Positions 32,573 to 61,674 of a stretch of DNA of 64,000 nucleotides are shown here, one piece after another. Source of the stretch: an uncultured Hyphomicrobiales bacterium (GTDB taxonomy: Bacteria; Bacteroidota; Ignavibacteria; Kapaibacteriales; UBA2268); NCBI GenBank assembly GCA_964650885.1, contig CAZYXG010000004.1, positions 9,723 through 73,722 on the forward strand. The letters are read 5' to 3'. The position numbers and the translations under genes are program-made. The notes below the pieces were generated by a model. That model saw only the letters and a program-made list of their open reading frames with translations, ran no database searches and was not told the DNA's origin. Numbering within the stretch: position 1 is the stretch's first letter; each line of letters begins with the position of its first letter.

Positions 32573-32576
32573 TCAA

Positions 32577-42002: not shown

Positions 42003-42144
42003 TACAATCTGTTGAAAGACATTGAAAATCAATAAAATGGCTAAAATCAGGATGATTGAAGCCAAGAATAATAAAAAAATAAATATGAAAATGAGAAATA
42101 ATAGTAATTTTTTAAAAAATAAAATTTTGTTCATCGGAGGTATT

Positions 42145-45100
42145 ATGCAACGATTTTATCGTTTGTTTTTATTGGCTATGATAGCTTTACTGGCAGTAAA
42201 TGTCGGTTTGGCTCAGAAGCCAATTGTGTACGTTTCGGGGAAACTCACCCCAAATAATGTAAGGACTTTCCAAAAGGATTCCCTTTACATTATTAATAAT
42301 GAGTATGTAGTAGGAGGAACTCTACTAATAGAGCCAGGTACGGAAGTTCAATTCTATCCAAATGGTAGATTGATTGACTCTACTGGTGGTCGTATCATCG
42401 CTGATGGTGATGCAAGTGCTGTTTATACACCTCAACCAAACAATGGTGGGTTAGACATGGATCCTATTGCAGGAGCAAGTCCGTTGAATCCATTAAATTG
42501 GTCTGGTTATGCAGACTTGAACTACTTTACTTACTCTAGTGGAACTGCTACAAACAGAAACACTATTAAAGTAAACACTGTTCGCGATTTGACTGTCCAC
42601 TCTACTAAAGAGAACATAGTATATAATGTCGTTATCGACAAGTCAACTAGAAGATTAAAGAATTTAACTCCAGGTTATGTTCTTGGTATTAATGAAGAAA
42701 TCATTCCTTTTGAAAAAGCAATGATGTTGCAAATTTCAAGAATGGTTAACGATCCAAATTCAGATGCCTTATTGAACAACAGACCTTGGAAAAGAATTAA
42801 AACTACAACTCAAACAACTGATATCGTAGATATTACTTCTGGACAAATTAAATTTAATGGACAAAACACAAATAACATTTCTCGTGAATGGGGACACATT
42901 GTAATCCTTCCAGGTGCAAGAGCTGCTTTCTTTAGAAATTGTAAATTTGAAGGTTTCAAAAAAGATACTACTGTAGATAGACTTCCTTATTATAATGTTA
43001 ATCAAGGTGGCGCTGGTGAAGTTGCTGCTTGGAGATCTGTAAACGAAAAATTAAAACAATTATCGAATGGTTCAGGTGGAGCGATTACATCGTTTTCTTC
43101 TAGAACTTGGTTGTTGAATGTAGAATTTAACAACAATAGAGCTTTCCGCCGTGGTGGTGCATTGCAATTATTGCAAGCTCCTAATGGTTTTCCAGGTTCA
43201 TTCGCAACTTTGAATGACTTGGTAGCTTCTGTTGGTGAATACGATTTAAATAAAAATCCAAATATTACTGATAAAGATGGATTGGCTTCTCAAATTTTAG
43301 CTAAACCAGAAGTAATAATACCTAGATTAAGTATGTTGGATGAAGCAGCTGGTACTACACCATTTGCAGTTGCTGCCTTAGAAACTAATGATAGAGATAG
43401 ACAAAACTGGGATGATGCTCGTTTGGCATTATACTTAGGTAGAATTAGAAATGTGAAATTTACTAACAACAAAGCTCAATTGAATAATGTTGGTATGGTT
43501 TCAGTTGGTATTCCACCTGTAACTCAAGTAACAGACATTTTGACTACTCCTGCTGCATTCCCAACTAACTACGGTAGTACTGTAGCTGGTGGTGCTTTGT
43601 ATATTTCAGGTAATGGAGAAATTCCTGGTACGTACGATGAAGCAAACTTAAATGAAACTGCAAACAGAATGATTGAAGTTGGTTTGGGTATTAATAATTC
43701 AATTAATATTTCAACAGGAACATTAACATTCCCTAATGCTGACTCATTTACTGCAACAAACAACGAAGCTAAAAACTATCAAAGTAATCCTTCTTCGCCA
43801 GGTGCGAATGGTGGAGCTATCTATGCTGGTGCTTACACTTCTTTAATAGTTGCTGGTAACTTTACTTCTAATAAAGCACAAGCTCCTTTTATGCAAAGTG
43901 ACGCTTTAAGTGTTGGTGCTGATAGATATGCTCGTGGTGGTGCGATTTTCGCTACTAACACACAAGCTAGATTGCAAGTAGTTGGTGGTAAATCAAGAGA
44001 TTTGATTAGCAACGCAACTTTATTTACACGTAACGAAGCTGCATCTGGTGGTGCAATTTATGTTTCTGGTAACTCTTCAACATACTCATCTCCAATCATT
44101 GGTGGTGCTGATAATACATTAGAAAGAAGAGATGTTGGATACAATATTCAATTTGATAACAATAAAGCATTAGTTTACGGTGGTGCAATTTACACATTGA
44201 GAAATATGTATGTAAATGGTGCTGGTGGAGCTACTCCAATTGAATTAATCGGTTATGATGATTTCAACAGAACTCGTTTTGTGAATAACACAGCTGGTTA
44301 TTCTGGTGGTGCGATTAGTATCAATATTCCTAATAACTCTATTTTACGTTCTTTCAATAGAAATATTGAATTCGTAAGAGCTTACTTTGGTAATAATACT
44401 GTAGGTAATGCAGTAAATAATACTAACGTAGCTGAAATTAGAGGTGGTGGTGCTGTTTATAATTTAAATGGTAACGTTGGCTTAATTAAAGGTACTGAAT
44501 TTAATGGTAATATCGTTTATAACTCAAACGGTGGTGCATTAACAACTGTTCACCCAGAACAATCACAAAGAAGATTTGTAATATCTGATTTGGATGTTGT
44601 AACTTATGAACCAGCTGCTGACGAAAACAACGTATTCTCAACAGACTTAATTCCTTCTTTTTATACAACTGCTGACGCTATATTTACAAAAGCACCTGGT
44701 GCTCCTTATCCAGCTGATGTAAGAATGATGACTAGATTTATTGGTAACAAAGCTTTAACTCCTGATGCAACTATATTAGCTGCTCAATCTGGTTCTGGTG
44801 TTACTCAAGTTGGATCTGGTACTTTAAAAACAACTGAACAATTGAAAGGGATGTTCTGGATTAACGAAACAACTGGTTATGCAGTTGGTGGAAACGGAAC
44901 AGTAATTAAATTTACAAACGGTGGTGACGAATGGAACTATGTTTCAACTGGCTCTACTGCAAACTTGAATGATGTATTCTTTACTAGTTCTAACGTTGGT
45001 TATATCGTTGGTAATCAAGGTACATTATTGAAAACAACTAATGGTGGTACTACTTGGTCTGCTATTAATGTTGATGTATTGACAGGTGGTTCTCCAGTTG

Positions 45101-48100
45101 TTAATACTTCTAACTTTACAAGCATTTCATTTGTTGGTTCTAACTCAGGTTATGTTACAACAAATAATGGTTATGTAATTAGAACTTCAGATGCTTTTGT
45201 ATCTAATTTCAATACAAATATTGATAACAATGGTATTCAAGCTAGCCCTCTGAATAATATTTACACTTCTGGTGTAGATAACTATACTGCAGTTGGTGAA
45301 GTTAAAACTATCTTGAAAAGAGATTTAGGATTCCCTTCTTTCACTTTCCAAGTTTCTCCAGTAAATGCTGTATTTAATACAGTATGGTACACTTCTTCTA
45401 CAAGAGGTTATATTGGTGGTACTAACGGTACTATCTTGAAAACTATCAATGGTGGTATAGACTGGAATCAAACAATCAACCCTGCAACTGGTACTATCGG
45501 TGCATTGACATTCGTATCTCCTTCTAAAGGATTTGCTGTTAATGGTTCTGGAAAAGTATTAACTACAGTTGATGCTGGTGATACATGGACAGAAATAACA
45601 GGTAACACAAACTTAAACGCATTGTATGATTTATCATTCCCAACGCCATCAATTGGTTTTGCAGTTGGTAATGCAGGTACATTGCTGAAATCAACTGATG
45701 CTGGCGCTACTTGGAAATCTGTTGGTCCAAATGATCAAAGTGTAGTTGATGTAGTAAGAAAACACAAAGGTACTGATTTGCCAGAAAATGGTATCGGTCT
45801 TGGTGGTGCAATTTACTTATTAGATAAAGCAAACATTGCAAGAATTGGTCGTAGAGATTCAATTCAGTTCAACCGTGTAAGAATGCAAAATAACGAATCT
45901 TATACAGGTTCTGTTATTTATTCTGATAACTACGATTTGAAATTGATTTTAAATAGAACATTGATTATTGGAAACAAAGCTAACTCTAAAGTTGGTGTAA
46001 CTCAAAATGTAATCACTGGTCCAATCGAAAGAGACAACACTGGTAGAGTAATTGCGAACAAAGCATCTTCAGATTTAGTACCTGCTACTATTTATGGTGA
46101 GATTCAAGGTCCATTGCCAAGTGCAAGTTTCTCTGTTGCAGCAAACTCAATTTATAACAATGATGCAAAATTCTTAATTAGATTACCAGATGCACCTAAT
46201 ACTAAAGGTGTATTGGCTGGAACATTGGGTCTTGGACTTGGTGGTACAGATACATTGCGTGGTAACTATTGGGGTCAAACTGAAGCTAACGTAATTTTGG
46301 AAATTCAAAATATCGTACTTGGTGCAGCGAAAACAACTCAAGAAACATTCTTTGTGGAAGGTAATGGTACTACAGTAATGAAATTTATTCCTACTGCTAC
46401 TACTAACTTAACTGAACAAGGTCCTTTTGAGTCAATTTCAAGATATGCTTACACTCCAATTCCATCTATGAATAATGTGAACAATGAAGATTTAGCAGCT
46501 GCTAATACTATTCCAGAAAACTTATTGCTTTCTGGTAAAGTATATGACATTTATGACAAAGGTACAGATGTTAAAACTGCTGATTATTCAAAACGCAGAA
46601 TGTCTCCAATTGAAGATTTCGCTGTTGGTATTGCACCAATTTCAAGAACTTATGCAGTAGCGAATACTCCTTCAAATGGTAAACACGTAAAAAGATACAT
46701 TCGTGATCCATTTGCAACTGAAGCATTATCATCTGGTACATTGACTAACCCTTGGTTAGCTTCTATGCAAGATGAATTTAGAAATGATGCAAATGGTAAT
46801 AGTTACCAACCATTAGGTATGCCTTTATTCTTAGAATCTAGAGTAAACTATGATGGTCTAATTGAAAATAGCAACCACGATCCATTGATGTTGAATGAAG
46901 CAGTTTACTTTGTAATCAACCAGACTTCTGGTGATTTAATTAGAGTAAACATGAGACAATTAAGTGAAGATGCACCAGGAAGAGAATTATTAAGAGCTAG
47001 AGTTGATTTAGTTCCAGATTCAACAATTTCTCCTGCAACTCCACTTGAAAGATACAATAGAGCATCTATAAGAAGAAGCGGTGAAGGAATTGCAAACTAT
47101 GGTATCGGAAGTGATATCTTGAACGCACTTTATAGAAACGCTGATAGAGAAGATAAAGCTGTTTTAGTTGGTAGAAAATATGATGCAAACATCACTGATT
47201 TTGCAAACGACGCATCTATATTCTCTAACAGACCAAGTATTACTGGTAAAGCAACTTATTTTGCTGGCGAGAGATACAGAGCATTGCCAGTTTGTGTTGG
47301 CGATAAAATTCAAATTTTATCAAGAACTGCACTTTGGAATCAAGGTATAGCAGCTGCAGATGCTGGTTCAATTACTTTTACAATTAGTAACTCAACTATG
47401 CCTCCAAGATTTACTGGAAACATTATTAGCTTGCAAAAAGATACAATTGTTAAAATTGTTCCTTCTGAATTGCAAAGCAAACGTCTTTTAGGTATTCCTG
47501 ATACTATTAGAATGGTTGAACTTTTGAATAAAAAATTCATCACAGAAGATAGATCTTACCCTAGAGTAAGAGGTACTTATAGCTCAACTACAACATTGCC
47601 AGAAAATGGTCGTGGTACTGACTCAATTTTGACTGTAACAGCTACTGATACAAACAAATTCTATGACCCACGTTCATTCTTTGCACCTGACAAATTCCCA
47701 AGATTAACTTATACTTGGAATGTTGACCCAACTTCTGGTTTGGCTAGATGGATGCAAGCAGATACAATTAAAGTAACAAATGTAGGAACTCCAAATGCGA
47801 ATAGCCAAAACCCAAGAGACTTGGCGTTAGGTTATATCAAATTTAGAGGTCAAGCAATTAATCCTTATGTTGTTCCTGGTGGTGAAGATGTAACTGTAAC
47901 TGCTGCTAACTATCCACCATCTTTCAGATTGTTGGATACGTTAAAATCTTATGGCGTTACTGACCAAAATATTTTAGATTACTCTGTAAATATTTATGGT
48001 AAATACTTCCATGCTCCAGTTTATGATAACATCAATGCAAGATACTTGCAACAAGATACAATCAACAGTGGTAAAAACTTTACAGTTTCTCACACATACA

Positions 48101-50331
48101 AAATGTTTGTAGTAGATAGTTTGCCAAGAATTTTTGAAAATGACGAACCTGAATCTGCTGTAACTAGAACTAAATCAGATGGCACATTGTTAGATACAAT
48201 AGTTCACTATGTACCTTCAGTTTATACTTGTGATTTGACTCAAGACGGTAGATTGAAAGCTAATTTGACTGATAAATTAAGATTCCAAATTGACATTAAC
48301 TCTGATGATGAATTAGAAGATAATGCTGCAATTGCAAAAGGTTGGGATTTCAAATATGGTCAATCAGCTTATGCATTCTTAAATAAAGTAAGAAATGGTG
48401 GCGATATCAACAATCCAGTTGATATTGTATTGGATACTACTTTTATTTGGGATAATGATTCACAAACTTACACTGCTGTATTGAATCAATCTAAACCAGG
48501 TTGGTTAGATGATAAATACATGTACAGATATGCTGATGAAACAACTCAAGATCAATTTGTTCAAGACTTTACTGCTAAAGGTCAAATCAACATACGTATT
48601 CCACGTGCTCAAGCTTTGACTTTGTTAACTCCAGTAAATGTTCAGAACAATGCTTTGAATACAGACACATCAATGACAATCATTTTGAATGATGGTCACG
48701 GTGGAAAAACTCAGAAGAAATACAATGTATTTGTGAACGTAGCTCCACAAATCTTGACTAATTCATTGGCGAATGCTAAAGAAGACTTTGATTATAACCC
48801 ACAATTGTTAGATTCTAACGTTAACGGTACTCGTATGATTAGAGTATTTGATGCAAACTTTGGACAAGCAAGAACATTCGAATTGATTTACAAAGCTTAT
48901 TCAAGCAACACTATTTCTAAAGACCCTTGCTACATTGAAGCTGGTGTTTGGGATGTTACTAACTTGAAAACAACACCAGAATGGTTGAAAATTAACCCAA
49001 TTACTGGTTTGTTATATGGTAAACCTGGAATCAAAGATGCACCAAAAACTGAATCAGTTACTGTATTAGTTACTGATGCTGAAGGATTGACAGATTTAAG
49101 AACTTACCAATTAGTAGTAGAAAAAACTGATCACAATCCAAACTTATCAGCTGCTCCTAATGTAAATTGTATTGATGGTACTAAATCTTACTTAGATACT
49201 TTAGTAGTATCTGATAGAGACTTAATTAGAGATGCTTCTGCAAATCCAAATGAAGAAAACTTAACTTTAACAGTTATTTCTCCATCTGGATTAACATTAG
49301 AACCTTCTACAGTTAAAGGACCTTTGTCTGATTCAACAATTAAAGTTGTAATCAAATCAACTGGTACTGGTTTCAATCCAGCTCGTGATAACGATGGTAA
49401 AATAACAGTAAGAATAGAAGTAACTGATGGTGCGGGTAACAAGAGTACTTTAATATACAGATTGAAAGTTAGCGAAGCTACTAGATTTGTAAGTAATGTG
49501 AAAGTAACTAACTCAATCGGTGGAACTCAAATACTTGAATGGGGTACAGCAGATAGAAACGTATCTACAGGTGATAATACTGATGGTGCTGCAATAGGTA
49601 AATTAGATTCTAACTATTGTGAGTATGAATTAGCTCCTTATCCTCCAACAGACGTATTTGATGCTAGATGGACAATACCAACAATCAATGGTGTGGTTAG
49701 ATCTATTTATCCTTCTTCTGTAAACAAAAACCAAATCTACATTGCACAATTACAACCTGGTGATGTAACTGGTAGCGGTAGTGGTAACTATCCATTGACT
49801 ATATCTTGGGATATGACAAGTGTTCCAGATAAATCTGACGCAGCTAAAAATCCTACTAGTTCTTCTTGGGCTATTAGAGATGCCTTATCTAACGGTAACT
49901 TGTTCAGTATTAACATGAACACAGGTGACGGTAGATTTGTAAATGGTTTCGAAGGTAAGAAAAATGGTAACCAATACGAATTGACTGTAAATAATACTTC
50001 AACTAAAGCTTTCGTTATCTTCCAAGATTGGAATAGCGATGTGGCAACTGACTACAATCCTGCATTTACAAACAAAATTAGCACAGTTTCTCCAAATCCT
50101 GTTGTAAACCAAGCTAATATTGAATTTGAACTTGCAAACTCTAATAATGTTTCTATTGAAATAGTAGATATGTTGGGTAACGTAGTTGCAACTGTAGCAA
50201 ATGGTTTCTACACTCCAGGTCAATACAAAATAGTATGGACTGGCGCAGAAAACATGGCTTCTGGTGCATACGTGGTAAGAATGAACGCAGGAACTGTAAC
50301 TGATACTTATTCAGTAACCATAGTTAAATAA
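42145..50331 (+). CDS. Giant (2728 aa) T9SS-sorted adhesin-like surface protein: Pmp-type beta-helix repeats + Ycf48/BNR beta-propeller + Ig/cadherin-like (He_PIG-type) domains + CTD
   Basis: Track ORF 42022..50331. The ATG at 42145 is preferred: GGAGG at 42136-42140 and signal peptide MQRFYRLFLLAMIALLAVNVGLAQ. Repeated GGAIY/GGALY...F(T/D)NN blocks lie at about 43085..44560. BNR/Asp-box motifs TTNGGTTWSAIN, TINGGIDWNQT, TTVDAGDTWTEIT and KSTDAGATWKSV lie at about 44850..45730. NVAPQILTNSLANAKEDFDYNP and ITGLLYGKPGIKDAPKTESVTVLVTDAEGLTD lie at about 48700..49480. The C-terminus ...SPNPVVNQANIEFELANSNNVSIEIVDMLGNVVATV...SGAYVVRMNAGTVTDTYSVTIVK is a CTD. Confidence 0.75.
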   Translation: MQRFYRLFLLAMIALLAVNVGLAQKPIVYVSGKLTPNNVRTFQKDSLYIINNEYVVGGTLLIEPGTEVQFYPNGRLIDSTGGRIIADGDASAVYTPQPNNGGLDMDPIAGASPLNPLNWSGYADLNYFTYSSGTATNRNTIKVNTVRDLTVHSTKENIVYNVVIDKSTRRLKNLTPGYVLGINEEIIPFEKAMMLQISRMVNDPNSDALLNNRPWKRIKTTTQTTDIVDITSGQIKFNGQNTNNISREWGHIVILPGARAAFFRNCKFEGFKKDTTVDRLPYYNVNQGGAGEVAAWRSVNEKLKQLSNGSGGAITSFSSRTWLLNVEFNNNRAFRRGGALQLLQAPNGFPGSFATLNDLVASVGEYDLNKNPNITDKDGLASQILAKPEVIIPRLSMLDEAAGTTPFAVAALETNDRDRQNWDDARLALYLGRIRNVKFTNNKAQLNNVGMVSVGIPPVTQVTDILTTPAAFPTNYGSTVAGGALYISGNGEIPGTYDEANLNETANRMIEVGLGINNSINISTGTLTFPNADSFTATNNEAKNYQSNPSSPGANGGAIYAGAYTSLIVAGNFTSNKAQAPFMQSDALSVGADRYARGGAIFATNTQARLQVVGGKSRDLISNATLFTRNEAASGGAIYVSGNSSTYSSPIIGGADNTLERRDVGYNIQFDNNKALVYGGAIYTLRNMYVNGAGGATPIELIGYDDFNRTRFVNNTAGYSGGAISINIPNNSILRSFNRNIEFVRAYFGNNTVGNAVNNTNVAEIRGGGAVYNLNGNVGLIKGTEFNGNIVYNSNGGALTTVHPEQSQRRFVISDLDVVTYEPAADENNVFSTDLIPSFYTTADAIFTKAPGAPYPADVRMMTRFIGNKALTPDATILAAQSGSGVTQVGSGTLKTTEQLKGMFWINETTGYAVGGNGTVIKFTNGGDEWNYVSTGSTANLNDVFFTSSNVGYIVGNQGTLLKTTNGGTTWSAINVDVLTGGSPVVNTSNFTSISFVGSNSGYVTTNNGYVIRTSDAFVSNFNTNIDNNGIQASPLNNIYTSGVDNYTAVGEVKTILKRDLGFPSFTFQVSPVNAVFNTVWYTSSTRGYIGGTNGTILKTINGGIDWNQTINPATGTIGALTFVSPSKGFAVNGSGKVLTTVDAGDTWTEITGNTNLNALYDLSFPTPSIGFAVGNAGTLLKSTDAGATWKSVGPNDQSVVDVVRKHKGTDLPENGIGLGGAIYLLDKANIARIGRRDSIQFNRVRMQNNESYTGSVIYSDNYDLKLILNRTLIIGNKANSKVGVTQNVITGPIERDNTGRVIANKASSDLVPATIYGEIQGPLPSASFSVAANSIYNNDAKFLIRLPDAPNTKGVLAGTLGLGLGGTDTLRGNYWGQTEANVILEIQNIVLGAAKTTQETFFVEGNGTTVMKFIPTATTNLTEQGPFESISRYAYTPIPSMNNVNNEDLAAANTIPENLLLSGKVYDIYDKGTDVKTADYSKRRMSPIEDFAVGIAPISRTYAVANTPSNGKHVKRYIRDPFATEALSSGTLTNPWLASMQDEFRNDANGNSYQPLGMPLFLESRVNYDGLIENSNHDPLMLNEAVYFVINQTSGDLIRVNMRQLSEDAPGRELLRARVDLVPDSTISPATPLERYNRASIRRSGEGIANYGIGSDILNALYRNADREDKAVLVGRKYDANITDFANDASIFSNRPSITGKATYFAGERYRALPVCVGDKIQILSRTALWNQGIAAADAGSITFTISNSTMPPRFTGNIISLQKDTIVKIVPSELQSKRLLGIPDTIRMVELLNKKFITEDRSYPRVRGTYSSTTTLPENGRGTDSILTVTATDTNKFYDPRSFFAPDKFPRLTYTWNVDPTSGLARWMQADTIKVTNVGTPNANSQNPRDLALGYIKFRGQAINPYVVPGGEDVTVTAANYPPSFRLLDTLKSYGVTDQNILDYSVNIYGKYFHAPVYDNINARYLQQDTINSGKNFTVSHTYKMFVVDSLPRIFENDEPESAVTRTKSDGTLLDTIVHYVPSVYTCDLTQDGRLKANLTDKLRFQIDINSDDELEDNAAIAKGWDFKYGQSAYAFLNKVRNGGDINNPVDIVLDTTFIWDNDSQTYTAVLNQSKPGWLDDKYMYRYADETTQDQFVQDFTAKGQINIRIPRAQALTLLTPVNVQNNALNTDTSMTIILNDGHGGKTQKKYNVFVNVAPQILTNSLANAKEDFDYNPQLLDSNVNGTRMIRVFDANFGQARTFELIYKAYSSNTISKDPCYIEAGVWDVTNLKTTPEWLKINPITGLLYGKPGIKDAPKTESVTVLVTDAEGLTDLRTYQLVVEKTDHNPNLSAAPNVNCIDGTKSYLDTLVVSDRDLIRDASANPNEENLTLTVISPSGLTLEPSTVKGPLSDSTIKVVIKSTGTGFNPARDNDGKITVRIEVTDGAGNKSTLIYRLKVSEATRFVSNVKVTNSIGGTQILEWGTADRNVSTGDNTDGAAIGKLDSNYCEYELAPYPPTDVFDARWTIPTINGVVRSIYPSSVNKNQIYIAQLQPGDVTGSGSGNYPLTISWDMTSVPDKSDAAKNPTSSSWAIRDALSNGNLFSINMNTGDGRFVNGFEGKKNGNQYELTVNNTSTKAFVIFQDWNSDVATDYNPAFTNKISTVSPNPVVNQANIEFELANSNNVSIEIVDMLGNVVATVANGFYTPGQYKIVWTGAENMASGAYVVRMNAGTVTDTYSVTIVK

Positions 50332-50426
50332 TAAAATATTGTGTAAGCCCTTTTCTAAAGTAGAAAAGGGCATATACAATAAAAATAAAAATCTTGGAAA
50401 TGAAAAATAATAACGGAGTTAATAAA

Positions 50427-52343
50427 ATGAGAAAAAAAATCTACGGAGCTTTGGGAGCCCTTGCGCTTTCATTAACTATGCTCGTGCAGACTTCTACTGC
50501 TCAAATCTACGGTGAATTTGAAACCGTGAAAGTAGTACAAGAAAATTATACCCCTATTATAGGTGGTACAGTACATGCATCAACTGAATTCAAATCAGGC
50601 GATTTAGGAATCGGCGGCGTGACTGATAAAGATGATGGATATAAAAAAATAACATTGCCATTTACATTTGAATTTAATGGCGATAACTATGATGAAGTTT
50701 GGGTTAATGTTAATGGATATGTTCAGTTTTTGAAACCTGGCGTACTTCCTTTATCTTTACCTCAAAAATTAGGTACTCGTTTGTTTACATTTGACAACAG
50801 TAGTGTTGCCTATAATGTTGTTGCTCCTTTCTGGGGTGATCACTTTTATAGAGATGGAGGTGATATATCAAGTTCATTTACACCATCTTCAATAATTACA
50901 CAAGCTTTACCAAGCCTAAGTTCTGCTACAGTATTTACTATTGAGTGGAAAGACTTACAAGTAAATAGAGATATAACAAATTTAGCTAATACAAACTTGC
51001 AATCTTCTATTGCAAATTTTCAAGTTAAATTCTACAAATCTACTATTTCAAGTACAAAACAAGGCGATATCGAATTTTGCTATGGTTTAGTTGGTAATAA
51101 TCCTAGACTACCTTCTTCTACTACAATCACAGATGTAATTACAAGAAATGCATCTATTGGAGTGAAAGGCGATGTTGGTGATTTTATTAATGCATTGCAC
51201 AACGATGTTTTTGGAACACCTGCTTTGGCAAAGTCTTCAACAATCTTGACAACTGGATGGCAACCATCTGGCGGATCTAACAGAAGATTACGTTACATAG
51301 CTAAAAGAAACTTTAATGTTGCTGAATTCTGGGGTGATGGAGATGCTGACTTCTCTAAAGCTGAAGGAAGACCACACGCTGCTTTCTTTAATGTACAAAA
51401 CAGATATGTAACTATCAATGATGTTCGTGTAATCTTAAGAAGCGTTGCAAGAAGAATTCCATTAGACAGTATTAGAAGAAGAGCTGCATTCCACGCAGAC
51501 GTTACTCACAATGGCCGTTTCTACTATAATGGTGGTGTAAGAACTTCTATTCCAAATAGAGATTTGAACTATGATGAGAATTTACCAGCTGGTATTTCTT
51601 CTGAAAAAGTTGTTTATTACCAAGCAAATGAATTTGATGCAGCAATTATTTTAAATTATTTGTCTGCTAAATTACCTTCATTACCTTGGAGATACGACAC
51701 AGTTCCTTTATATGGAAAAGAAAAATTCGATGGTGCTTATGCTAACAGCATTAAATTAGGAACTTCAGTTAAAGATAATGGTATTGTAAGATTACCAATC
51801 TCTTTAAACGGTAGAATTAATGGTGCTTTAGGCGTTAAATTCAATGTGAATGGCGAAATCGTTAATGTTGTTGGAAACGGCGATAATAAATTAGCTTTTG
51901 ATTTTGATGGCAACACAGTTGTTATAGCTGGTGCTGGTGAATTCGCTGCTAACGAAGAAATTGCTTACCTTGATGTGAGAACTACTTCAAATGAAATTAA
52001 ATTGACTGATATAAATTTCAACGATAACCAAGTTGGCGAAATTTCAACTTTAGAATCATTGGAAGACAATGGCGCTAACTTAATGAATACTCCAAATCCA
52101 TTTAACACTACAACAGATATTAAGTTTGATGTTGCTGTTTCTGGAAACTATGCTTTAGCTATCTATGATGTTTATGGTAAACTTGTAAAAGAATTATCTA
52201 ACAATTTCTTGAATGCTGGAAAGTTTTCATTTAATTGGGATGGAACTACTCTTACTAATGAATCTGCTCAATCAGGTATGTACGTTGCTAAATTAACTTC
52301 TGGCAATAATACTTACACTGTTAAAATGGTTCTTACTAAGTAA
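50427..52343 (+). CDS. Hypothetical T9SS-sorted secreted protein
   Basis: Track ORF from 50394. Start ATG at 50427 (MRKKIYGALGALALSLTMLVQTSTAQ, with GGAG 9 nt upstream) or at 50394. The C-terminus NTPNPFNTTTDIKFDVAVSGNYALAIYDVYGKLVKEL...SGMYVAKLTSGNNTYTVKMVLTK is a CTD. Confidence 0.6.
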   Translation: MRKKIYGALGALALSLTMLVQTSTAQIYGEFETVKVVQENYTPIIGGTVHASTEFKSGDLGIGGVTDKDDGYKKITLPFTFEFNGDNYDEVWVNVNGYVQFLKPGVLPLSLPQKLGTRLFTFDNSSVAYNVVAPFWGDHFYRDGGDISSSFTPSSIITQALPSLSSATVFTIEWKDLQVNRDITNLANTNLQSSIANFQVKFYKSTISSTKQGDIEFCYGLVGNNPRLPSSTTITDVITRNASIGVKGDVGDFINALHNDVFGTPALAKSSTILTTGWQPSGGSNRRLRYIAKRNFNVAEFWGDGDADFSKAEGRPHAAFFNVQNRYVTINDVRVILRSVARRIPLDSIRRRAAFHADVTHNGRFYYNGGVRTSIPNRDLNYDENLPAGISSEKVVYYQANEFDAAIILNYLSAKLPSLPWRYDTVPLYGKEKFDGAYANSIKLGTSVKDNGIVRLPISLNGRINGALGVKFNVNGEIVNVVGNGDNKLAFDFDGNTVVIAGAGEFAANEEIAYLDVRTTSNEIKLTDINFNDNQVGEISTLESLEDNGANLMNTPNPFNTTTDIKFDVAVSGNYALAIYDVYGKLVKELSNNFLNAGKFSFNWDGTTLTNESAQSGMYVAKLTSGNNTYTVKMVLTK

Positions 52344-52344
52344 T

Positions 52345-53475
52345 TTGGAAAAGATATTGAAAATATGGCTACTTTTAATTGCTATCTTTGCGATAAGTAG
52401 CCATAATTCAATTGCTCAACCAAAGTTTCAGATTGTTCTGAAAAACAATAACGGTACCTTAGACTTATGTGGCAATAGTTTTAGAAAGGAAGTTCTATTA
52501 ACTGTTAACCTTGGATTAATTGAATCAAAAGATTCTCTTTTGGGATTTAATTTCAAGATAAAGTATGACACAAATAAAGTAAAATTTAATACTTATTTGA
52601 AAAGTAATACTTTGAGTGCGTTCTTTAATTTTGCTGATGGTAGAGTGTCAAGGACTGAACAAGGACTTTTTGCAAGCGGTGGACAAATCAATGATTTGTT
52701 TGTACCAATTGTTGGGAATAAGCCTCTTGTAGCTTTTGCTGGTGAATATATTGCTGATTGTAATGATTCAACTATAATTGAAGTCGAATATTTTGAGTTC
52801 AATGATGAGTTTACGAAAAAATTAGATATAGATACACCTTATGTTAGCCTGAAAGTACTTGGCGAAATTGAAAAAAAACCAGAAAGAAAAATGGTAGTCA
52901 ATTTCACAAAAGACACAATCGTAATTTATGCGGATAGTCTTTATGAGGAATCTTTCGAATTAACTTCAATGGCAAATAGTAAATCAGAGAATGTTACAGT
53001 AACTTTTACTAAAGATTCTGATAAAATTAGAATCACAGATTTAGTTGCCCAAGATAGCTCTGCTAAAGTAACTGTCTTTTTGAATGACTTTGCATTAACA
53101 CTTGCTGAAATTAATAATCAGCAAACTGGTATCACTAAAAAGTTTAAAATGAAGTTGAAATCTGAACTAGATGAAGATTTCGTTACTAAGATTTATACTA
53201 AAAGTGAAATCAATGTTAACTGCACTTGCATTACTGAGATATTTGAAGATAGCGTAACTGTTATAGTTAAAAAGAAACAAATAAATTCTGTCGTTGAAGA
53301 TAGAAACTATTACGAAAACTTGAAAAAAATTGACGTTTACAACTACTTAGGTCAAAGAGTGAAAGAAGTAAATAGTTTAATAGAATTAAACAAAATGCCA
53401 AACGGTATATATTTACTTGAAATAATATCTGAAGACAATACTAAAAGGTTACAAAAATTGATAATAAACAATTAA
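52345..53475 (+). CDS. T9SS-sorted protein with cohesin-like N-terminal domain
   Basis: 376 aa. Signal peptide MEKILKIWLLLIAIFAISSHNSIAQ. ...KEVLLTVNLGLIESKDSLLGFNFKIKYDTNKVKFN resembles the cohesin core (F.F.I.YD.N.L). The short CTD is ...DVYNYLGQRVKEV...PNGIYLLEIISEDNTKRLQKLIINN. Starts 2 nt after the upstream gene. Confidence 0.5.
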   Translation: MEKILKIWLLLIAIFAISSHNSIAQPKFQIVLKNNNGTLDLCGNSFRKEVLLTVNLGLIESKDSLLGFNFKIKYDTNKVKFNTYLKSNTLSAFFNFADGRVSRTEQGLFASGGQINDLFVPIVGNKPLVAFAGEYIADCNDSTIIEVEYFEFNDEFTKKLDIDTPYVSLKVLGEIEKKPERKMVVNFTKDTIVIYADSLYEESFELTSMANSKSENVTVTFTKDSDKIRITDLVAQDSSAKVTVFLNDFALTLAEINNQQTGITKKFKMKLKSELDEDFVTKIYTKSEINVNCTCITEIFEDSVTVIVKKKQINSVVEDRNYYENLKKIDVYNYLGQRVKEVNSLIELNKMPNGIYLLEIISEDNTKRLQKLIINN

Positions 53476-53507: not shown

Positions 53508-56500
53508 ATGAAGGATTTTTTAACAAAAATGAAAAGCGGTAAGTTTATGCTTGCGTTTATGCTATTAATGGCATTAACAATTGCATCTACAGACTTATAC
53601 AGCTTAGCTTATGGCGGAAAACCACAAAAGCCACGTCTTAGTTTGACTGGAGCGGCTGATGGTTTTAACTCTGATTGGTACCCTGATGGTAAAATTTGGT
53701 TGCCAATATCTGCAAATGGTACAAGAGAATTCTTAATGCCAGTATTTCTTGATAATAGATACGATACAAGAATTGTAAGAAGAACTACTCCACCATTGCC
53801 AGATACTATCTACTACGTAGTAGATCCTATCAAAAGTTTTAGATTTAAAATTATGTACGATAGCGCTGCTGTAAGAGTTGTCGGTGTACAAGCTACAAAT
53901 CCAGACAATGCTCCTGTAGATTTGTCTGAACAACCATTAGCTAATAGTTTCAATATTTCATGGAGCGATTCAGCTGATGTGAAATACATGTACTATGTTA
54001 GAGATGGAAGTTTAACTAATCCAAATTATACAGGGCCTACAAGTGCTGATGCACTTAGAGGTAGATCAGTAACTATTACTGGTGCTTCAGATAAAGCTTT
54101 GGCAAGTACTTATAATAGCCCGAACAATCCTGATCAAGGAGTTAACTATAAAGTTTTGGTTTATGTTAAATTTAGAATCGTACCAAAATCAGACGCTGAT
54201 TTGACTACTTCTAGATTAACTCCAGTATATATTTCACCAGATGAAATAATGTACAATAACTGGAATGCTGCGAAAGATCCAATTTTACCTTACTATAGAG
54301 AAAATGCTAATTCTGCTGCCCAGTGGGCTTCAGATTATACTGGTGAGACATATTCACCTGCTAATTATTTTGGTCAAAAAACTTTAGCAAACGTTTATGT
54401 AGATCAAACAAGAGCTTTGGCTGGTATTAACAATACTTCTGAAAGAGAAAATAACTTACAATTGCCTCCAAGTCCTTGGGGTAGTTTATGGGTTAGATTT
54501 TTCTCAACTCCATCTTTATTTGCATTTAAATCAAACAGATCTATTGATCCTCCAAGAGCTATTTCTAAATTAAGTAAAACTGTTAACGGTCAAGTTGTAG
54601 AAGATCCATCTAATTGGGAAATTATTACTCCTATTACTGTTGATAACAACCCAAGTAACCCAAGTGTTGGCACTAGAGAAATGGAAATCTTTTTGGAAGG
54701 AAGCGGAACAAGAGCTACTGACGTAACTATTGAATCTGATTCTCCTTGGTTGCTTTTCTCAAGCAAAACTGGTGCTGCTTATAAATCAAGTCCATCTATG
54801 TCTTCACCTACAAGAAGTGGTTACATTAACTGGTTGGATAATGGTATTTTGGGCAAAAATGGTTTAGCTACTCCTACAGTATTAGGTGGCGATGCACCAG
54901 AAGAATTAATTTCTGCTATCAATATCCTATGCGATCCAAGTAAATTGACTTTAGGAAATGGAGAGAAAGAAGGTATCCATGTAGGTTACTTGACTTTCAG
55001 ATCTAACTTTGCTAACATTTCTCCTACTAGAGTGAAAGTTACTTTTATTTACTTTAAATCTCCACAAGAGGGTATTAGAGCTGGTGCAGCTCCTGGTATC
55101 AAAATCAAAATGAGAAACTCTAAACCAGTTACTCCTGATACTACATCTTTGATTTTTGGAACAGGCCCTAGAGCTACTAGAGGTGTTGATACGCTTTATG
55201 GTGAATATGCTAAAGAATTCTGTAGCTTCTGCCCAAGTGCTAGCCCAAGAGTTTTTGGTGCTGCTTTCTTCCCTTATAGAATGAAACCTGCTGATTCATT
55301 GGCTACAGCTAAATTTGGTTTTGGTGATTTTTCTAAAAATGACGAAAAACCATATTCTGCTTCTAGAGATATTAGAAGTGTAGATGATTCAACTGAATCA
55401 ATTACTTACTTAGTGAATTTCTTTGCTAATGGCGATGCGAATTACCCTGTAACATTGGAATGGGATTTGAGAGATTTCCCTGATGGTGCAAGTTTGTTTT
55501 TGAAAGATAACTTGAATGGTGGTGGTTTCCCTGCAGTAGATATGAGAAATACTACTGTAACAGGTCAATATACTCGTTCTTTCGTAATTCAAGATCCAAA
55601 AATTACTTCTTACTTGATTGAATATACATTGCCAACAGTAATTGATTACGTTGATGATAACAAATTGCCAATCATTAAAACTGGTTGGAACATGCTTTCT
55701 ATGCCTGTTAAACCAACTAATACTCAATACCGTAATATTTACAGAAATGCTATTGCAAAACCATACAACTATGCACTTGGTAACTATCAAGAAAATGATG
55801 TGCTTACAGCTGGTGTTGGTTATTTTGTGAAATATGGTGTTACTATTGATAGTAAATTCTCTGGTTCTGTGATTACTGAAATCTCTCCAGCTGTTGGAAA
55901 TACTGTAAAAGTATGGCCTGGCGATGCTGGAAAAGGTGGATGGAATTCAGTTGGTGGTTTATCTTTCCCAACTTCAATAACAAATATTGATTTTGAAAAA
56001 TTTGGAACTGTTGCTTTACCAGACAAAAACTATACATTGAAATTTGGTGTTTGGACTTACAAAACTAGCAATGGTTATTTTGAAGTTTCTGAAATCAAAC
56101 CAGGTTTGGGTTACTTCATTAAAGTTGATAAAGATGGTTACTATAAATTGACTAACCCTAATATTAAAATGGGTGTCAATATGTTGACTAATGGTAAAGA
56201 AGCAATTTACAATGCTTCTACTGCTATCAATGTTGTTGATAACGCAAACAGCAAATCTGTTGTTTACTTATCAAACAATACTGAGTTAGAAGTAGAAAAC
56301 TTTGAAATGCCTCCAGCTCCTTCAACTAATATGTTTGATGTACGTTTTGCTACTACAAATACTAACTTAGTAAACAATGATAATGCAGTTATCAGCATGC
56401 AAGGTGTTACTTACCCTGTATCTATATCTGCTAAAAATGCTAACTCTAACTTGTCATTTGTTGATGCAGTTACTGGTGAAGTATTTGGTAACATTTTGAA

Positions 56501-56834
56501 AGGTTCAGAGAAAAACATTGAAATTAAATCTAGTTCAAGTGCAGTTAGAGTTATAGCTACTGAAAGCAATGATGAAGCATCATCTTTCGTTAATTATCCT
56601 AACCCAGTAACTAACAATACTAATTTCAACTACAGTGTAGCTAACAATACCAACGTAACAATTGAAATCTACAATCAAGTAGGTTCAGTAGTTGCAACTG
56701 TTGTTAATGAATTCCAAAAAGCTGGAAATCACACAGTATCATTTGACGCAAGCAACTTGCCAAGTGGTTCTTATGTTGTGAAATTCAACTCTAATGGTAC
56801 TACTGCTACTCGTACAATTTCTATCGTTAAGTAA
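53508..56834 (+). CDS. Hypothetical large (1108 aa) T9SS-sorted secreted protein
   Basis: Signal peptide/TM MKSGKFMLAFMLLMALTIASTDLYSLA. No assignable catalytic motif. The C-terminus YPNPVTNNTNFNYSVANNTNVTIEIYNQVGSVVATV...SGSYVVKFNSNGTTATRTISIVK is a CTD. Confidence 0.6.
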   Translation: MKDFLTKMKSGKFMLAFMLLMALTIASTDLYSLAYGGKPQKPRLSLTGAADGFNSDWYPDGKIWLPISANGTREFLMPVFLDNRYDTRIVRRTTPPLPDTIYYVVDPIKSFRFKIMYDSAAVRVVGVQATNPDNAPVDLSEQPLANSFNISWSDSADVKYMYYVRDGSLTNPNYTGPTSADALRGRSVTITGASDKALASTYNSPNNPDQGVNYKVLVYVKFRIVPKSDADLTTSRLTPVYISPDEIMYNNWNAAKDPILPYYRENANSAAQWASDYTGETYSPANYFGQKTLANVYVDQTRALAGINNTSERENNLQLPPSPWGSLWVRFFSTPSLFAFKSNRSIDPPRAISKLSKTVNGQVVEDPSNWEIITPITVDNNPSNPSVGTREMEIFLEGSGTRATDVTIESDSPWLLFSSKTGAAYKSSPSMSSPTRSGYINWLDNGILGKNGLATPTVLGGDAPEELISAINILCDPSKLTLGNGEKEGIHVGYLTFRSNFANISPTRVKVTFIYFKSPQEGIRAGAAPGIKIKMRNSKPVTPDTTSLIFGTGPRATRGVDTLYGEYAKEFCSFCPSASPRVFGAAFFPYRMKPADSLATAKFGFGDFSKNDEKPYSASRDIRSVDDSTESITYLVNFFANGDANYPVTLEWDLRDFPDGASLFLKDNLNGGGFPAVDMRNTTVTGQYTRSFVIQDPKITSYLIEYTLPTVIDYVDDNKLPIIKTGWNMLSMPVKPTNTQYRNIYRNAIAKPYNYALGNYQENDVLTAGVGYFVKYGVTIDSKFSGSVITEISPAVGNTVKVWPGDAGKGGWNSVGGLSFPTSITNIDFEKFGTVALPDKNYTLKFGVWTYKTSNGYFEVSEIKPGLGYFIKVDKDGYYKLTNPNIKMGVNMLTNGKEAIYNASTAINVVDNANSKSVVYLSNNTELEVENFEMPPAPSTNMFDVRFATTNTNLVNNDNAVISMQGVTYPVSISAKNANSNLSFVDAVTGEVFGNILKGSEKNIEIKSSSSAVRVIATESNDEASSFVNYPNPVTNNTNFNYSVANNTNVTIEIYNQVGSVVATVVNEFQKAGNHTVSFDASNLPSGSYVVKFNSNGTTATRTISIVK

Positions 56835-56920
56835 TTCACTTAACTTAGAGATACAATTCTATAAATGGGTAACATTATTGCAATGTTACCCATTTTATTT
56901 TTTTAGATGGAAATAATGAA

Positions 56921-57664
56921 ATGAAAAAATATTTTCTCTTATTAATGTGCTTATTTGCAACTAAACTTGTTGCTTCTGAAGATATTGAAATTAAGTTAAA
57001 AATTACTAACGAAGAAAATTCAAATTATACTCTTACCCTTGGGGTGAGCGATACTTTGACAGATAATTATGATGAGGGTAGTAATTTAGAAAGAGATATG
57101 CCTGATTTTCCACCTTCAGAAGGTATATTGCCATATTTTAAAATATATGCTGAATCGCAAAAAGTTGATATATATTCGCAAGCCGATATAAAAAAATTAG
57201 AAAAAGATAGTTTAAGTTTTACTAAAAAATATAAATTAGTTATTTTAGGAAACAGTCTTTCCGATTATACATTGGAATGGTTCTTAAGTCCAAAGTATAT
57301 TAGGTCTGCTAAAATATTAGATGAGTTTGGCGGAAATGTATTAAATATAGATATGCTTAAGCAATCAACTGTAAAAGTTAATAGATTTTTGAAAGATATA
57401 ACTATTGAAGTTGTGTATTTGAATCCAACTATGGATTTGCCAATTGAAGATAAATTAAATTTGAAGTTTTATCCTAACCCTAGTAAAGATATGATAAGTT
57501 TCTCACAAAATGTAACAAAATGGGAAATATTTGATTTGTTGGGTAATAAGATAATTTCTGGCAGCGAAAAAGAAATTGATTTAAGAAATTTCGCTAATGC
57601 TTGTTATTTGATTAAATTGCATTCAAAAGAAGGTACCAAGTACCAAAACTTGATAAAAGAATAA
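56921..57664 (+). CDS. Hypothetical small T9SS-sorted secreted protein
   Basis: 247 aa. Signal peptide MKKYFLLLMCLFATKLVASE. The C-terminus LKFYPNPSKDMISFSQNVTKWEIFDLLGNKIISGSEKEIDLRNFANACYLIKL is CTD-like. Confidence 0.55.
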   Translation: MKKYFLLLMCLFATKLVASEDIEIKLKITNEENSNYTLTLGVSDTLTDNYDEGSNLERDMPDFPPSEGILPYFKIYAESQKVDIYSQADIKKLEKDSLSFTKKYKLVILGNSLSDYTLEWFLSPKYIRSAKILDEFGGNVLNIDMLKQSTVKVNRFLKDITIEVVYLNPTMDLPIEDKLNLKFYPNPSKDMISFSQNVTKWEIFDLLGNKIISGSEKEIDLRNFANACYLIKLHSKEGTKYQNLIKE

Positions 57665-57672
57665 TAACCTTT

Positions 57673-58701
57673 ATGGAAAAAGAAGAAAAAAAGAAAGTAG
57701 AAAGTGAAACTGGGCAGCAAAAACCTAGAAAACCTCGCTTTGCAAACAATAGAAATAATTTCTCTAGCGATACTGCTATTTCTGTGGTAATACCTTTGCT
57801 AAATGAGGAGGAATCGCTAAAAGAACTTTCTCAAATGCTAGAAGTAGTATTGGAAAAAGAAGTAGGCAAAAAGTATGAAGTACTTTTTATTGACGATGGC
57901 TCTACTGACAAATCATTCGATGTGATTAAAGAAATACACGCTAAAAACTCAAACTTTAAAGTAATCAGATTCAGACGTAATTATGGTAAATCAGCTGCTT
58001 TAGCAATTGGTTTCGATAAAGCTCGTGGAAAAGTAGTCATAACAATGGATGCCGATTTGCAAGACGATCCCAATGAAATACCTAATTTAATGGCTAAAAT
58101 TAAGGAAGGTTACGACTTGGTCTCTGGTTGGAAAAAAACAAGACACGATCCAATTGGTAAAACTTTACCAAGTAAGTTTTTCAATTTCGTCACTTCAAAA
58201 GTTTCTGGAATTAAGCTTCACGATTTTAATTGTGGATTGAAAGCATACAAAAGAGAAGTTACTAAGTCTCTAAAAGTTTATGGCGAAATGCACAGGTACT
58301 TGCCAGCATTAGCTCATATTGATGGATTCAAAGTAACCGAGATTCCTGTATTGCATCATCCCAGACTTTATGGCAAATCAAAATTTGGTGCATCAAGATT
58401 TGTGAAGGGCTTTTTAGATTTAACAACTGTAGTCTTCACAACTAAATACTTGAAAAGACCATTGCACTTTTTTGGAACAATAGGTGTCTTATTTATGCTG
58501 ATTGGATTCATTATTGACTTATATTTAAGCTATATTTGGCTATATAAAAATGAGTCTTTGAGCAACCGACCATTGGTACTTTTTGGTGTTGCGTTGATTA
58601 TTGTTGGCGTTCAGTTCTTCTCTACTGGTCTTTTGGGCGAATTGCTTGTTAAGAATAGTAACATTAAAGAAAATTACTCAATTAAAGAGCAAATATTTTA
58701 A
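57673..58701 (+). CDS. GT2 polyprenyl-phosphate glycosyltransferase (ArnC/GtrB/DPM1-like) with C-terminal TM helices
   Basis: 342 aa. ISVVIPLLNEEESL, FIDDGSTDKS and ...ITMDADLQDDP are the GT2 DXD motifs. Two C-terminal TM helices. A 35-aa charged N-terminal extension. Starts 9 nt after the upstream gene. Confidence 0.75.
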   Translation: MEKEEKKKVESETGQQKPRKPRFANNRNNFSSDTAISVVIPLLNEEESLKELSQMLEVVLEKEVGKKYEVLFIDDGSTDKSFDVIKEIHAKNSNFKVIRFRRNYGKSAALAIGFDKARGKVVITMDADLQDDPNEIPNLMAKIKEGYDLVSGWKKTRHDPIGKTLPSKFFNFVTSKVSGIKLHDFNCGLKAYKREVTKSLKVYGEMHRYLPALAHIDGFKVTEIPVLHHPRLYGKSKFGASRFVKGFLDLTTVVFTTKYLKRPLHFFGTIGVLFMLIGFIIDLYLSYIWLYKNESLSNRPLVLFGVALIIVGVQFFSTGLLGELLVKNSNIKENYSIKEQIF

Positions 58702-60660: not shown

Positions 60661-61674
60661 GTGGGACAACAGAAAAATATATTTTTAGCAAATAAGAAAA
60701 TCTGTGTGGTTCGCACCGATAAAATTGGCGATATGATTTTGACATTGCCACTTGTAAGAGTAATTAAATTAAACTTCCCCGAAAAAGAAACTATATTAAT
60801 AGCTCAGAAAATTAATAAGCCAATCATTGAAAATAATCCCTTTATAGATAAAATTTATTATATAGATGATTACAAAAATATAGATGATATATTTAAAGAA
60901 GCAGAAATAAAAGTAGCATTTTTTCCAAGACCAAACTTTTCAGAAATTTTTTCAGCTTTCAAATCTGGTGTTTCTCTTAGAATTGGAATTACTTCACGTT
61001 GGTATAGCTTTTTGTTTAATTTCAAAGTTAAGCACCATAGAAGTAAGGGCGAGAAAAATGAAGCTGAATACAACGTAGAAATGCTAAATAATTTATTTGA
61101 AACAAACTATGAAACTATTCTATGTGATATAAATGTTGTGCCTGCAACATTACAAAGTTTGGAAGTAAAGTTGAATCAGAAAAGAATTAATTTAGATGCT
61201 GATTTCGTTATATTCCATCCAGGTTCTGGTGGTTCTTCTCTTGATTGGTCAACAGATAATTTTGCAGAATTGGCAAGTATGTTAACTCATGAAGGCAAAA
61301 CAATAGTTTGCACTGGCGATAAAAATGACAAAATACTTTGCAGTAGAATTGAAGCAGAAGCACCAAACATAAAAAATGTTTCTGGATTATTGAATCTGGA
61401 AGAAACTATTGCCCTGATAAGCAAAGCAAAGGGTTTGATAGCAAATTCCACAGGCATAATACATATTGCGGCTGCCCTAGGAGTGTCAGTTTTGGGTTTA
61501 TACCCAAACAAGCCACAGTTGAGTGCAAACAGATGGGGCCCTTGGACAAAGAATAGAAGGATTGTTAGACCTCCTCAAAGCAATGATTTACAAAAAAATG
61601 ATGATATGAGTTTGATTAGTGTTGATAAGGTTTACAGAGAATTAATACAATTGCTTAATGGGAAATTTAATTAA
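60661..61674 (+). CDS. GT9-family glycosyltransferase (LPS heptosyltransferase-like)
   Basis: 337 aa with a GTG start. KKICVVRTDKIGDMILTLPLVRVIK is the GT9 N-terminal motif. ...FHPGSGGSSLDW... and ...IANSTGIIHIAAALGVSVLGLY... follow. Confidence 0.65.
   Translation: MGQQKNIFLANKKICVVRTDKIGDMILTLPLVRVIKLNFPEKETILIAQKINKPIIENNPFIDKIYYIDDYKNIDDIFKEAEIKVAFFPRPNFSEIFSAFKSGVSLRIGITSRWYSFLFNFKVKHHRSKGEKNEAEYNVEMLNNLFETNYETILCDINVVPATLQSLEVKLNQKRINLDADFVIFHPGSGGSSLDWSTDNFAELASMLTHEGKTIVCTGDKNDKILCSRIEAEAPNIKNVSGLLNLEETIALISKAKGLIANSTGIIHIAAALGVSVLGLYPNKPQLSANRWGPWTKNRRIVRPPQSNDLQKNDDMSLISVDKVYRELIQLLNGKFN

Follow-up and report, generated by a model that had tools for sequence, protein, structure and literature searches.

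A giant, conserved, predicted type IX secretion cargo with a beta-propeller nested in its putative beta-helix: a candidate surface glycoprotein of Kapabacteria-like bacteria

In the 64,000-nucleotide stretch of contig CAZYXG010000004.1 analysed here (the window; all positions are counted from its first letter), one gene of 2728 codons encodes a protein of unusual size, which we refer to as the giant. We show that the giant is an orthologue passed on vertically, that its architecture is fixed and that purifying selection acts on it throughout. Its predicted architecture comprises a Pmp-type beta-helix that carries a seven-bladed propeller between two of its turns, a family-specific core, immunoglobulin-like (Ig-like) modules and a type IX secretion system (T9SS) C-terminal sorting domain (CTD). 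On balance, the giant is probably a structural glycoprotein tethered at the cell surface, central to a conserved assembly of several surface proteins. Rather than being a strain-variable adhesin, it most likely builds this lineage-specific assembly together with its co-conserved T9SS cargo proteins, either as a coat resembling a surface layer (S-layer) or as a fibre. The coordinates of all features are collected in Table 1.

Conservation of the family

When 5.8 billion proteins were searched through a word index, more than 120 relatives of 2650-2900 amino acids (aa) were recovered with 100% query coverage and 42-62% identity, in addition to one at 89% identity and an identical copy that lies on a JGI contig of its own. 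The assemblies of these relatives are independent (JGI, NCBI, ENA, Logan), and their sources are metagenome-assembled genomes (MAGs) labelled Ignavibacteria, Kapabacteria/Kapaibacterium or Chlorobi/Chlorobiota. In a one-genome-per-species scan 282 relatives were confirmed, and the loci of 80 of them, from 80 different assemblies with one locus each, were kept. Residue-level conservation was taken from a 38-sequence family alignment. Compared with the 89% relative by the Nei-Gojobori method, the ratio of nonsynonymous to synonymous substitution rates (dN/dS) was 0.13 overall and 0.05-0.20 by region. These data dispose of the possibility, raised in an earlier sequence-only reading of this DNA, that a frameshift or assembly error had joined separate genes. 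Only the unusual length would speak for such an artefact, whereas collinear full-length relatives in independent assemblies and the identical JGI copy speak against it. Because purifying selection acts on every part of the protein, we rejected a fusion of genes by assembly or annotation, to which we assign next to no probability.

The family is already present in databases under automated names, the products of relatives being called "YCF48-related protein" or "T9SS type A sorting domain-containing protein". For 120 homologues, the precomputed Pfam annotations are limited to Pmp-repeat, PSII_BNR, Sortilin-Vps10, He_PIG and CTD-type families, together with PF25852, which could not be placed. 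Literature searches on Ignavibacteria/Kapabacteria, T9SS, Ycf48 and S-layer topics yielded no description of the family.

The intact open reading frame (ORF), the GGAGG Shine-Dalgarno sequence and the signal peptide described from the letters alone were borne out. The N-terminus, MQRFYRLFLLAMIALLAVNVGLA followed by QKP, is a standard Sec signal peptide with predicted cleavage between Ala and Gln. This site is retained in the family alignment, with A23 kept in 36/38 and Q24 in 31/38 relatives. Such a site fits the Bacteroidetes "Q-rule", and the Q-value of Ignavibacterium album is comparably high (PMC5837995). A mechanical ORF call would start at TTG 42022, an extension over the ATG that adds AT-rich, low-complexity sequence only, and the homologues start at the position equivalent to the ATG of the giant with the consensus MxRLxRLSLL.

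Beta-helix and nested propeller

The giant contains 11 GGA(I/L/V) motifs compared with 0.95 expected from shuffled sequences, and these alternate with FxxN motifs, of which there are 24 compared with 10.1 expected. The Pfam model Chlam_PMP (PF02415) matches with 31.6 bits at a cut-off of 20.6, and the Pmp-like repeats of the sequence-only reading were confirmed in this way. An AlphaFold2 model of aa 223-1416, based on a 43-sequence alignment, reached a predicted local distance difference test score (pLDDT) of 80 and a predicted TM-score (pTM) of 0.72. It contains ~41 short strands and few helices in aa 435-872, a compact propeller in aa 900-1183 and strand triplets again from aa 1223-1346. The rungs following the propeller were modelled at a pLDDT of ~70-90 together with the upstream rungs but only at 30-57 without them. 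Since these rungs model moderately well only beside the upstream ones, both parts fit one continuous solenoid. The beta-helix is thus predicted from its motifs and from the strand pattern of the model, and a PDB sequence search with aa 223-895 returned nothing useful.

In case of the propeller, the Pfam model PSII_BNR matched at 1e-20, and Ycf48 entries of the PDB were found at 8e-16 with the single sequence and at 3.6e-30 with the family profile. Using Foldseek, the propeller model could be aligned to Ycf48 (5ojp) with a TM-score of 0.77 (E 3.5e-16, 23-25% identity), and seven-bladed designer propellers matched as well. Because the model resembles both groups of structures, the propeller is predicted to have seven blades, only four of which keep canonical Asp boxes. 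The BNR propeller of the sequence-only reading was therefore recovered while its description as 4+-bladed gives way to seven blades. With 21-37% identity in the family alignment the propeller is the least conserved part of the giant. Its invariant residues are Gly, Trp and Thr only, so that no conserved binding patch is apparent.

Five relatives in the 38-sequence alignment lack exactly residues ~896-1201. At the resulting junction, "...RMLTRFxGN...GSGTTQxG" directly abuts "DVxRxH...LPENGxGLGGAIY...FNRVRMQNN...GAAIYS". As both flanks are Pmp-type rungs, the propeller would lie between two turns of the solenoid. Rather than forming a tandem module, it is nested in the predicted beta-helix and dispensable. 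Surveying 145 family sequences of at least 1950 aa, we found the propeller present in 126 and absent from 19. We placed these absences on an unrooted neighbour-joining tree of the core region, built from the family without an outgroup. Eleven propeller-less representatives are found on one side of a single branch and form a basal grade under midpoint rooting. Four or more other lineages without the propeller branch from within groups that have it. By their position in the tree, the nested absences clearly point to clean secondary excisions. Since the family has no outgroup, the tree does not tell whether the main event was a single gain or a single loss. Whichever its direction, the presence and absence pattern marks the propeller as an accessory module.

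A stand-alone Ycf48-like/BNR propeller lipoprotein with the lipobox LLSSC is encoded at 61658-62653, downstream of the giant at a distance of over 10 kb. The likeness between the two propellers noted in the sequence-only reading holds at the level of blade repeats (27-37% identity over 60-127 aa) and does not extend to a close relation. We rejected a recent duplication linking them, since the similarity is merely blade-level. As judged by sequence comparison, the lipoprotein is a distant superfamily relative of the propeller and no more.

Core and C-terminal region

The best-conserved blocks of the giant are aa 1201-1400 and 1451-1500 (59-72% identity), the latter being the top 50-aa block at 72%. 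The structure model of aa 1195-2200 has high confidence beyond ~aa 1495 (pLDDT mostly 80-95), where it shows beta-sandwich and alpha/beta domains, with an S-layer protein as the top PDB match of the sandwich domains in aa 1495-2200. Residues ~1347-1494 were poorly modelled in both runs, and the pLDDT of aa 1391-1494 was largely below 50. Sequence and profile searches of the PDB gave no match to aa 1200-2200, and a sequence query with aa 1391-2170 likewise returned nothing useful. A HMMER search with aa 1201-2200 over 1.84 billion cluster representatives yielded 79 hits, and this region is family-specific because essentially all of them are family members or fragments. We discarded the sole core match outside the family, P0175, as it consists of low-complexity tandem repeats. 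Many Asp, Glu, Arg, Lys and Tyr residues of the core are invariant, and no invariant His is present in aa 1400-2170. Within the poorly modelled stretch, the invariant residues include D1468, D1471, K1472, K1477, D1480, E1490 and D1491. The roughly 900 residues for which the sequence-only reading had found no recognisable fold overlap the best-conserved stretch (aa 1201-1600), which lies within the family-only aa 1201-2200. The region indeed lacks sequence relatives outside the family, but the model assigns beta-sandwich and alpha/beta folds to the greater part of it with confidence.

Following the core, the Cadherin_5 match to the Ig-like modules is sub-threshold (E 0.06, 13.6 bits vs 26.5), whereas He_PIG exceeds its cut-off of 24 at the equivalent place in the orthologues P0007 (29.5 bits) and P0028 (28.8 bits). 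The He_PIG/cadherin-like modules proposed before thus stay below threshold in the giant itself and exceed a cut-off in orthologues. The next module recurs in C3, the 1108-aa product of a neighbouring gene (29% identity at E 4e-14 in a BLASTP alignment of C3 aa 932-1108 with aa 2494-2728 of the giant), and has a dN/dS of 0.05. At the end of the giant (aa 2648-2722), PF18962 (Por_Secre_tail) scored 28.4 bits at a cut-off of 27 and TIGR04183 scored 26.7 bits at a cut-off of 23, so that the CTD seen in the sequence-only reading stands above both curated cut-offs. In the PDB, the family profile matched only propellers (Ycf48 and others) with its propeller part and FlgD-Ig with its CTD part. No autotransporter family was among the Pfam and NCBIfam hits of the giant at E <= 1. 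Six CTD-bearing ORFs are encoded in the window, which would fit a T9SS-using organism. One T9SS cargo elsewhere in the window (14381-17410, minus strand) is a 1009-aa protein combining an IgGFc_binding domain (1e-58) with a type-A CTD.

The Bacteroidota O-glycosylation sequon D(S/T)(A/I/L/V/M/T) has been defined previously (PMC8550257). It occurs 17 times in the giant compared with 10.8 +/- 3.0 expected, and the mean over 38 family members is 19.4 compared with 10.1 expected, with all 38 lying above expectation. On average a sequon is retained in 70% of homologues, compared with 14-29% for E/N/G-(S/T)-(A/I/L/V/M/T) controls. The Ser/Thr at the +1 position is retained at 0.76 vs 0.44 for other Ser/Thr residues (p = 9e-5), and conserved positions include aa 45, 78, 1238, 1369, 1971 and 2097. 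This enrichment and conservation would fit a conserved surface glycoprotein.

Gene neighbourhood

Synteny was counted over 83 loci. The order TPR-giant-C1-C2-C3-(C4)-GT2-U268-GT9 is kept in up to 80/83 of them (Table 1). The gene directly upstream of the giant, in 79/83 loci, encodes a protein with one transmembrane (TM) helix and tetratricopeptide repeats (TPR), whose orthologues match TPR_21. This TM-TPR protein may be a dedicated periplasmic chaperone. C1-C4 all end in a T9SS type-A CTD and have lengths of ~650, ~375, ~1100 and ~250 aa, respectively. No Pfam family besides the CTD was found in C1-C4, NCBIfam searches of the neighbours likewise brought up CTDs alone, and no PDB relative was found for C1 and C3, the two tested. 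Within C1, the stretch "VWVNVNGYVQF ... VVAPFWGDHFY" (aa ~85-150) recalls what we take to be the NIDO (nidogen-like) signature. The strong terminator-like hairpin behind C3 suggests a transcript boundary inside the conserved block. The TPR, C1 and C2 neighbours are kept even in the most divergent propeller-less members (36-39% identity).

The lower counts for the envelope glycosyltransferase genes GT2 and GT9 and for U268, the gene of a 268-aa protein between them, arise mostly because loci stop at contig ends. U268 has no match in Pfam at E <= 5 or in NCBIfam at E <= 0.1; from its signal peptide and its C-terminal ...QYRFNK it is possibly a small outer-membrane beta-barrel. Upstream of the block GatB and E1 dehydrogenase are often found, a housekeeping-like neighbourhood. 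The G+C content at third codon positions is lowest of the window in the giant, C1 and C3 (0.20-0.21 vs 0.24-0.37 for genes outside the cluster), and their C-ending NNY codons lie above those of the median gene. This codon usage is a weak hint at shared, possibly high, expression.

Two further regions of the window lie apart from the block. At 20325-23000, an 891-aa protein has a patatin-like phospholipase and a POTRA repeat as its sole Pfam matches. At 31340-33800, two adjoining ORFs of 410 and 407 aa are flanked by a glycogen/starch synthase gene on one side and by hslV/hslU-like genes on the other; neither matches Pfam at E <= 0.001.

Table 1. Features of the giant gene and its surrounding block (positions in the window)
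Feature	Position	Strand	Details
Giant gene, ORF	42145..50331	+	ATG 42145, stop 50329-50331, 2728 codons, 0 internal stops
Shine-Dalgarno GGAGG	42136..42140	+	4 nt before ATG; read directly from the sequence
Sec signal peptide, aa 1-23	42145..42213	+	predicted cleavage between GLA and Q
N-terminal conserved cap and Pmp-type beta-helix part 1 (predicted), aa 24-895	42214..44829	+	10 GGA(I/L/V), FxxN, some helical inserts
Nested 7-bladed Ycf48-like beta-propeller (predicted), aa 896-1201	44830..45747	+	from sequence, fold and presence/absence of the module
Beta-helix part 2 (predicted), aa 1202-1390	45748..46314	+	GLGGAIY, FNRVRMQNN, then LRGNYWG; 59-69% identity
Highly conserved segment, aa 1391-1494	46315..46626	+	YDxYDKGTDxKTADYSKRRMSPIEDFAVG; no PDB/Pfam match
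Family-specific core, aa 1495-2170	46627..48654	+	array of beta-sandwich and alpha/beta domains (model)
About 3 Ig-like (cadherin-like/He_PIG) domains, aa 2171-2441	48655..49467	+	
Pre-CTD beta-sandwich module, aa 2442-2648	49468..50088	+	common to the giant and the 1108-aa neighbour C3
T9SS type-A CTD, aa 2649-2728, and stop	50089..50331	+	
TM-TPR protein, 237 aa	41289..42002	+	acidic N-terminus, one TM helix, TPR (YfgM/TPR_21-like); Pfam TPR_1/TPR_12
C1, 649 aa, T9SS-tagged	50394-52343	+	CTD hit; 80/83 loci
C2, 376 aa, T9SS-tagged	52345-53475	+	CTD hit; 71/83 loci
C3, 1108 aa, T9SS-tagged	53508-56834	+	CTD hit; 77/83 loci
Terminator-like hairpin	56863-56895		14-bp stem, then T-run; directly after C3
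C4, 247 aa, T9SS-tagged	56921-57664	+	CTD hit; 44/83 loci, least constant
Polyprenyl-phosphate GT2	57673-58701	+	ArnC/PgfS/AglJ-like; 63/83 loci
U268, 268 aa	58704-59510	+	signal peptide; between GT2 and GT9; 62/83 loci
GT9 heptosyltransferase-like gene	59519-60628	+	56/83 loci

Role at the cell surface

Taken from its sequence features, a role at the cell surface is the best reading of the giant. The protein would cross the inner membrane by Sec with cleavage between Ala and Gln, and would then fold in the periplasm and be O-glycosylated at its conserved D(S/T)(A/I/L/V/M/T) sequons. Subsequently, it would be exported by the T9SS, lose its CTD and be tethered C-terminally to an outer-membrane glycolipid. 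The export steps follow established T9SS biology (PMC10202324, PMC7468200), as does the C-terminal attachment of T9SS cargo to a glycolipid (PMC7468200). Because the tether would be the C-terminus, the Ig-like and sandwich domains would form a membrane-proximal stalk from which the core and the beta-helix project outwards. The beta-helix may serve as a scaffold and the variable propeller as an accessory binding head at its side, and constant contacts with other proteins, plausibly C1-C4, would most likely be made by the conserved core. Its conservation with the same neighbours in hundreds of genomes makes the giant look like a core part of the envelope and not like a variable adhesin. We also put forward, as a tentative extension that is possible rather than probable, that the block encodes a surface structure of several proteins which has not been described before and which is the hallmark of the Kapabacteria/Ignavibacteria-like lineage. 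It would be an S-layer-like glycoprotein coat or a fibre put together by way of the T9SS, with the family-only core (aa ~1200-2200) at its heart and the propeller as an exchangeable head.

Several points weigh against a structural surface glycoprotein of this kind. At ~285 kDa the mature giant exceeds typical S-layer subunits. No T9SS core genes were seen in the 64-kb window, and no named beta-helix structural match was obtained, propeller matches filling both lists of hits. The sequon used here is the Bacteroidota consensus and may not be that of Kapabacteria. A catalytic or binding site could conceivably lie within the poorly modelled, highly conserved aa ~1347-1494. Further, the named family members are all uncultured MAGs.

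The giant might instead be a classical strain-variable mosaic adhesin, with modules shuffled and diversified as the substrates or hosts to be bound change. Adhesins typically contain parts such as Pmp-type repeats, Ig-like domains and propellers, and the propeller of the giant is both variable (21-37% identity) and gained or lost. However, more than 120 homologues share one fixed architecture at 100% coverage, dN/dS is 0.13 and does not exceed 0.20 in any region, and the core is conserved above many neighbouring genes. In addition, each of the top 80 assemblies has a single locus, and the GatB/E1 dehydrogenase context resembles that of housekeeping genes. We therefore consider such an adhesin unlikely. 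Of the earlier reading as a mosaic surface protein that is "adhesin/S-layer-like" we retain the surface role and, as likely, the S-layer-like coat, but not the mosaic adhesin, in view of the fixed architecture, the low dN/dS and the strict synteny.

Two readings would assign the giant an activity of its own. As a surface-anchored polysaccharide-active enzyme it would have a catalytic site in the beta-helix (lyase/hydrolase-like) or in the core, with the propeller and the Ig-like domains binding carbohydrate. Carbohydrate-active enzymes (CAZymes) do include beta-helices and BNR/Asp-box propellers, and the invariant Asp, Glu, Arg, Lys and Tyr residues of the core as well as the unmodelled, very conserved acidic segment aa 1451-1500 could be taken in this sense, as could a weak match to the NCBIfam glycosylhydrolase model F510_1955 (26.8 bits vs a cut-off of 175). 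Yet no CAZyme, lyase or Beta_helix/NosD Pfam family was found at E <= 1, and the precomputed Pfam annotations of the 120 homologues consist of Pmp-repeat, propeller, He_PIG and CTD-type families plus the unplaced PF25852. Invariant His residues are missing from aa 1400-2170 and the propeller is dispensable, and we regard an enzyme as unlikely. Very unlikely, in our estimate, is a part in the envelope or T9SS attachment machinery comparable to PorZ, which combines a propeller with a CTD, remains at the surface and acts on the anchor glycolipid. Such a part would explain both the conservation and the linkage to GT2/GT9. However, the giant is ~3.6 times the size of PorZ, the propeller as the PorZ-like feature is absent from ~19 lineages, and the PorZ match covers the Ig-like domain only; sequence similarity to T9SS component models was not found.

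Retained over its whole length at more than 42% identity across hundreds of species, and in strict synteny with several T9SS cargo proteins and envelope glycosyltransferases, the giant stands out as a strong candidate for the principal surface architecture of a widespread, essentially uncultured Kapabacteria/Ignavibacteria-like lineage. Kapabacteria and related Ignavibacteria-like bacteria inhabit sediments, aquifers, bioreactors and mats, and we know of no account of their cell surface. The giant family also shows clearly how, in nature, an entire beta-propeller can be placed inside a predicted beta-solenoid and be lost from it again several times. Should it merely be a large adhesin, the annotation would still be corrected, the database name "YCF48-related protein" being misleading.

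Comparison with known systems

Ycf48/HCF136 (PDB 2xbg, 5ojp, 8am5) shares with the propeller of the giant its seven blades, at 23-25% identity and a TM-score of 0.77. In contrast to Ycf48, a stand-alone lipoprotein acting in photosystem II assembly, the propeller of the giant is an insertion at aa 896-1201. The Ycf48 equivalog model NF010237 scores 73.3 bits on the giant against a cut-off of 326, below equivalog level. Based on these scores we assign the propeller to the Ycf48-like fold superfamily and do not consider it a Ycf48 orthologue. Phototrophy is not known from the host lineage.

In case of the chlamydial Pmp proteins (PF02415), type V autotransporter adhesins, the likeness lies in the alternating GGA(I/L/V) and FxxN motifs and in the predicted beta-helical surface passenger. 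The giant, however, is 2-3 times larger, has the nested propeller and a long non-Pmp C-terminal half, and carries a T9SS type-A CTD by which it would be exported in place of the autotransporter beta-barrel. Autotransporter passengers with a beta-helix stem (SPATE/Hbp-type) consist of a solenoid scaffold with a globular domain protruding from its loops. The giant would have this design principle in common with them, although the secretion system is another one, a sequence relationship is missing and the insert is a whole 300-aa propeller.

Like the giant, the gliding adhesins SprB and RemA of Flavobacteriia are giant T9SS-dependent surface proteins. SprB has a type-B CTD and a cognate PorP/SprF-like protein and is highly repetitive, whereas the CTD of the giant is of type A and its sequence is non-repetitive and strongly conserved. 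Consistent with this difference, TIGR04131 (type-B CTD) did not match the giant and no PorP/SprF-like model matched its 268-aa neighbour.

TfsA and TfsB of Tannerella forsythia are large, O-glycosylated, Ig-like-rich T9SS type-A cargo proteins that are encoded side by side and form an S-layer (PMC4175972, PMC8550257). Compared by description and features, the giant likewise has adjacent CTD genes, arrays of Ig-like sandwich domains and conserved sequons. The features it shares with this type (the CTD, partner CTD genes and sequons) are necessary for membership but not sufficient. It differs in being more than two times larger and in having a predicted beta-helix, a propeller and four partner proteins. 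By analogy, the TfsA/TfsB S-layer is the closest functional counterpart of the giant. If this is true, surface layers built by the T9SS extend beyond Tannerella.

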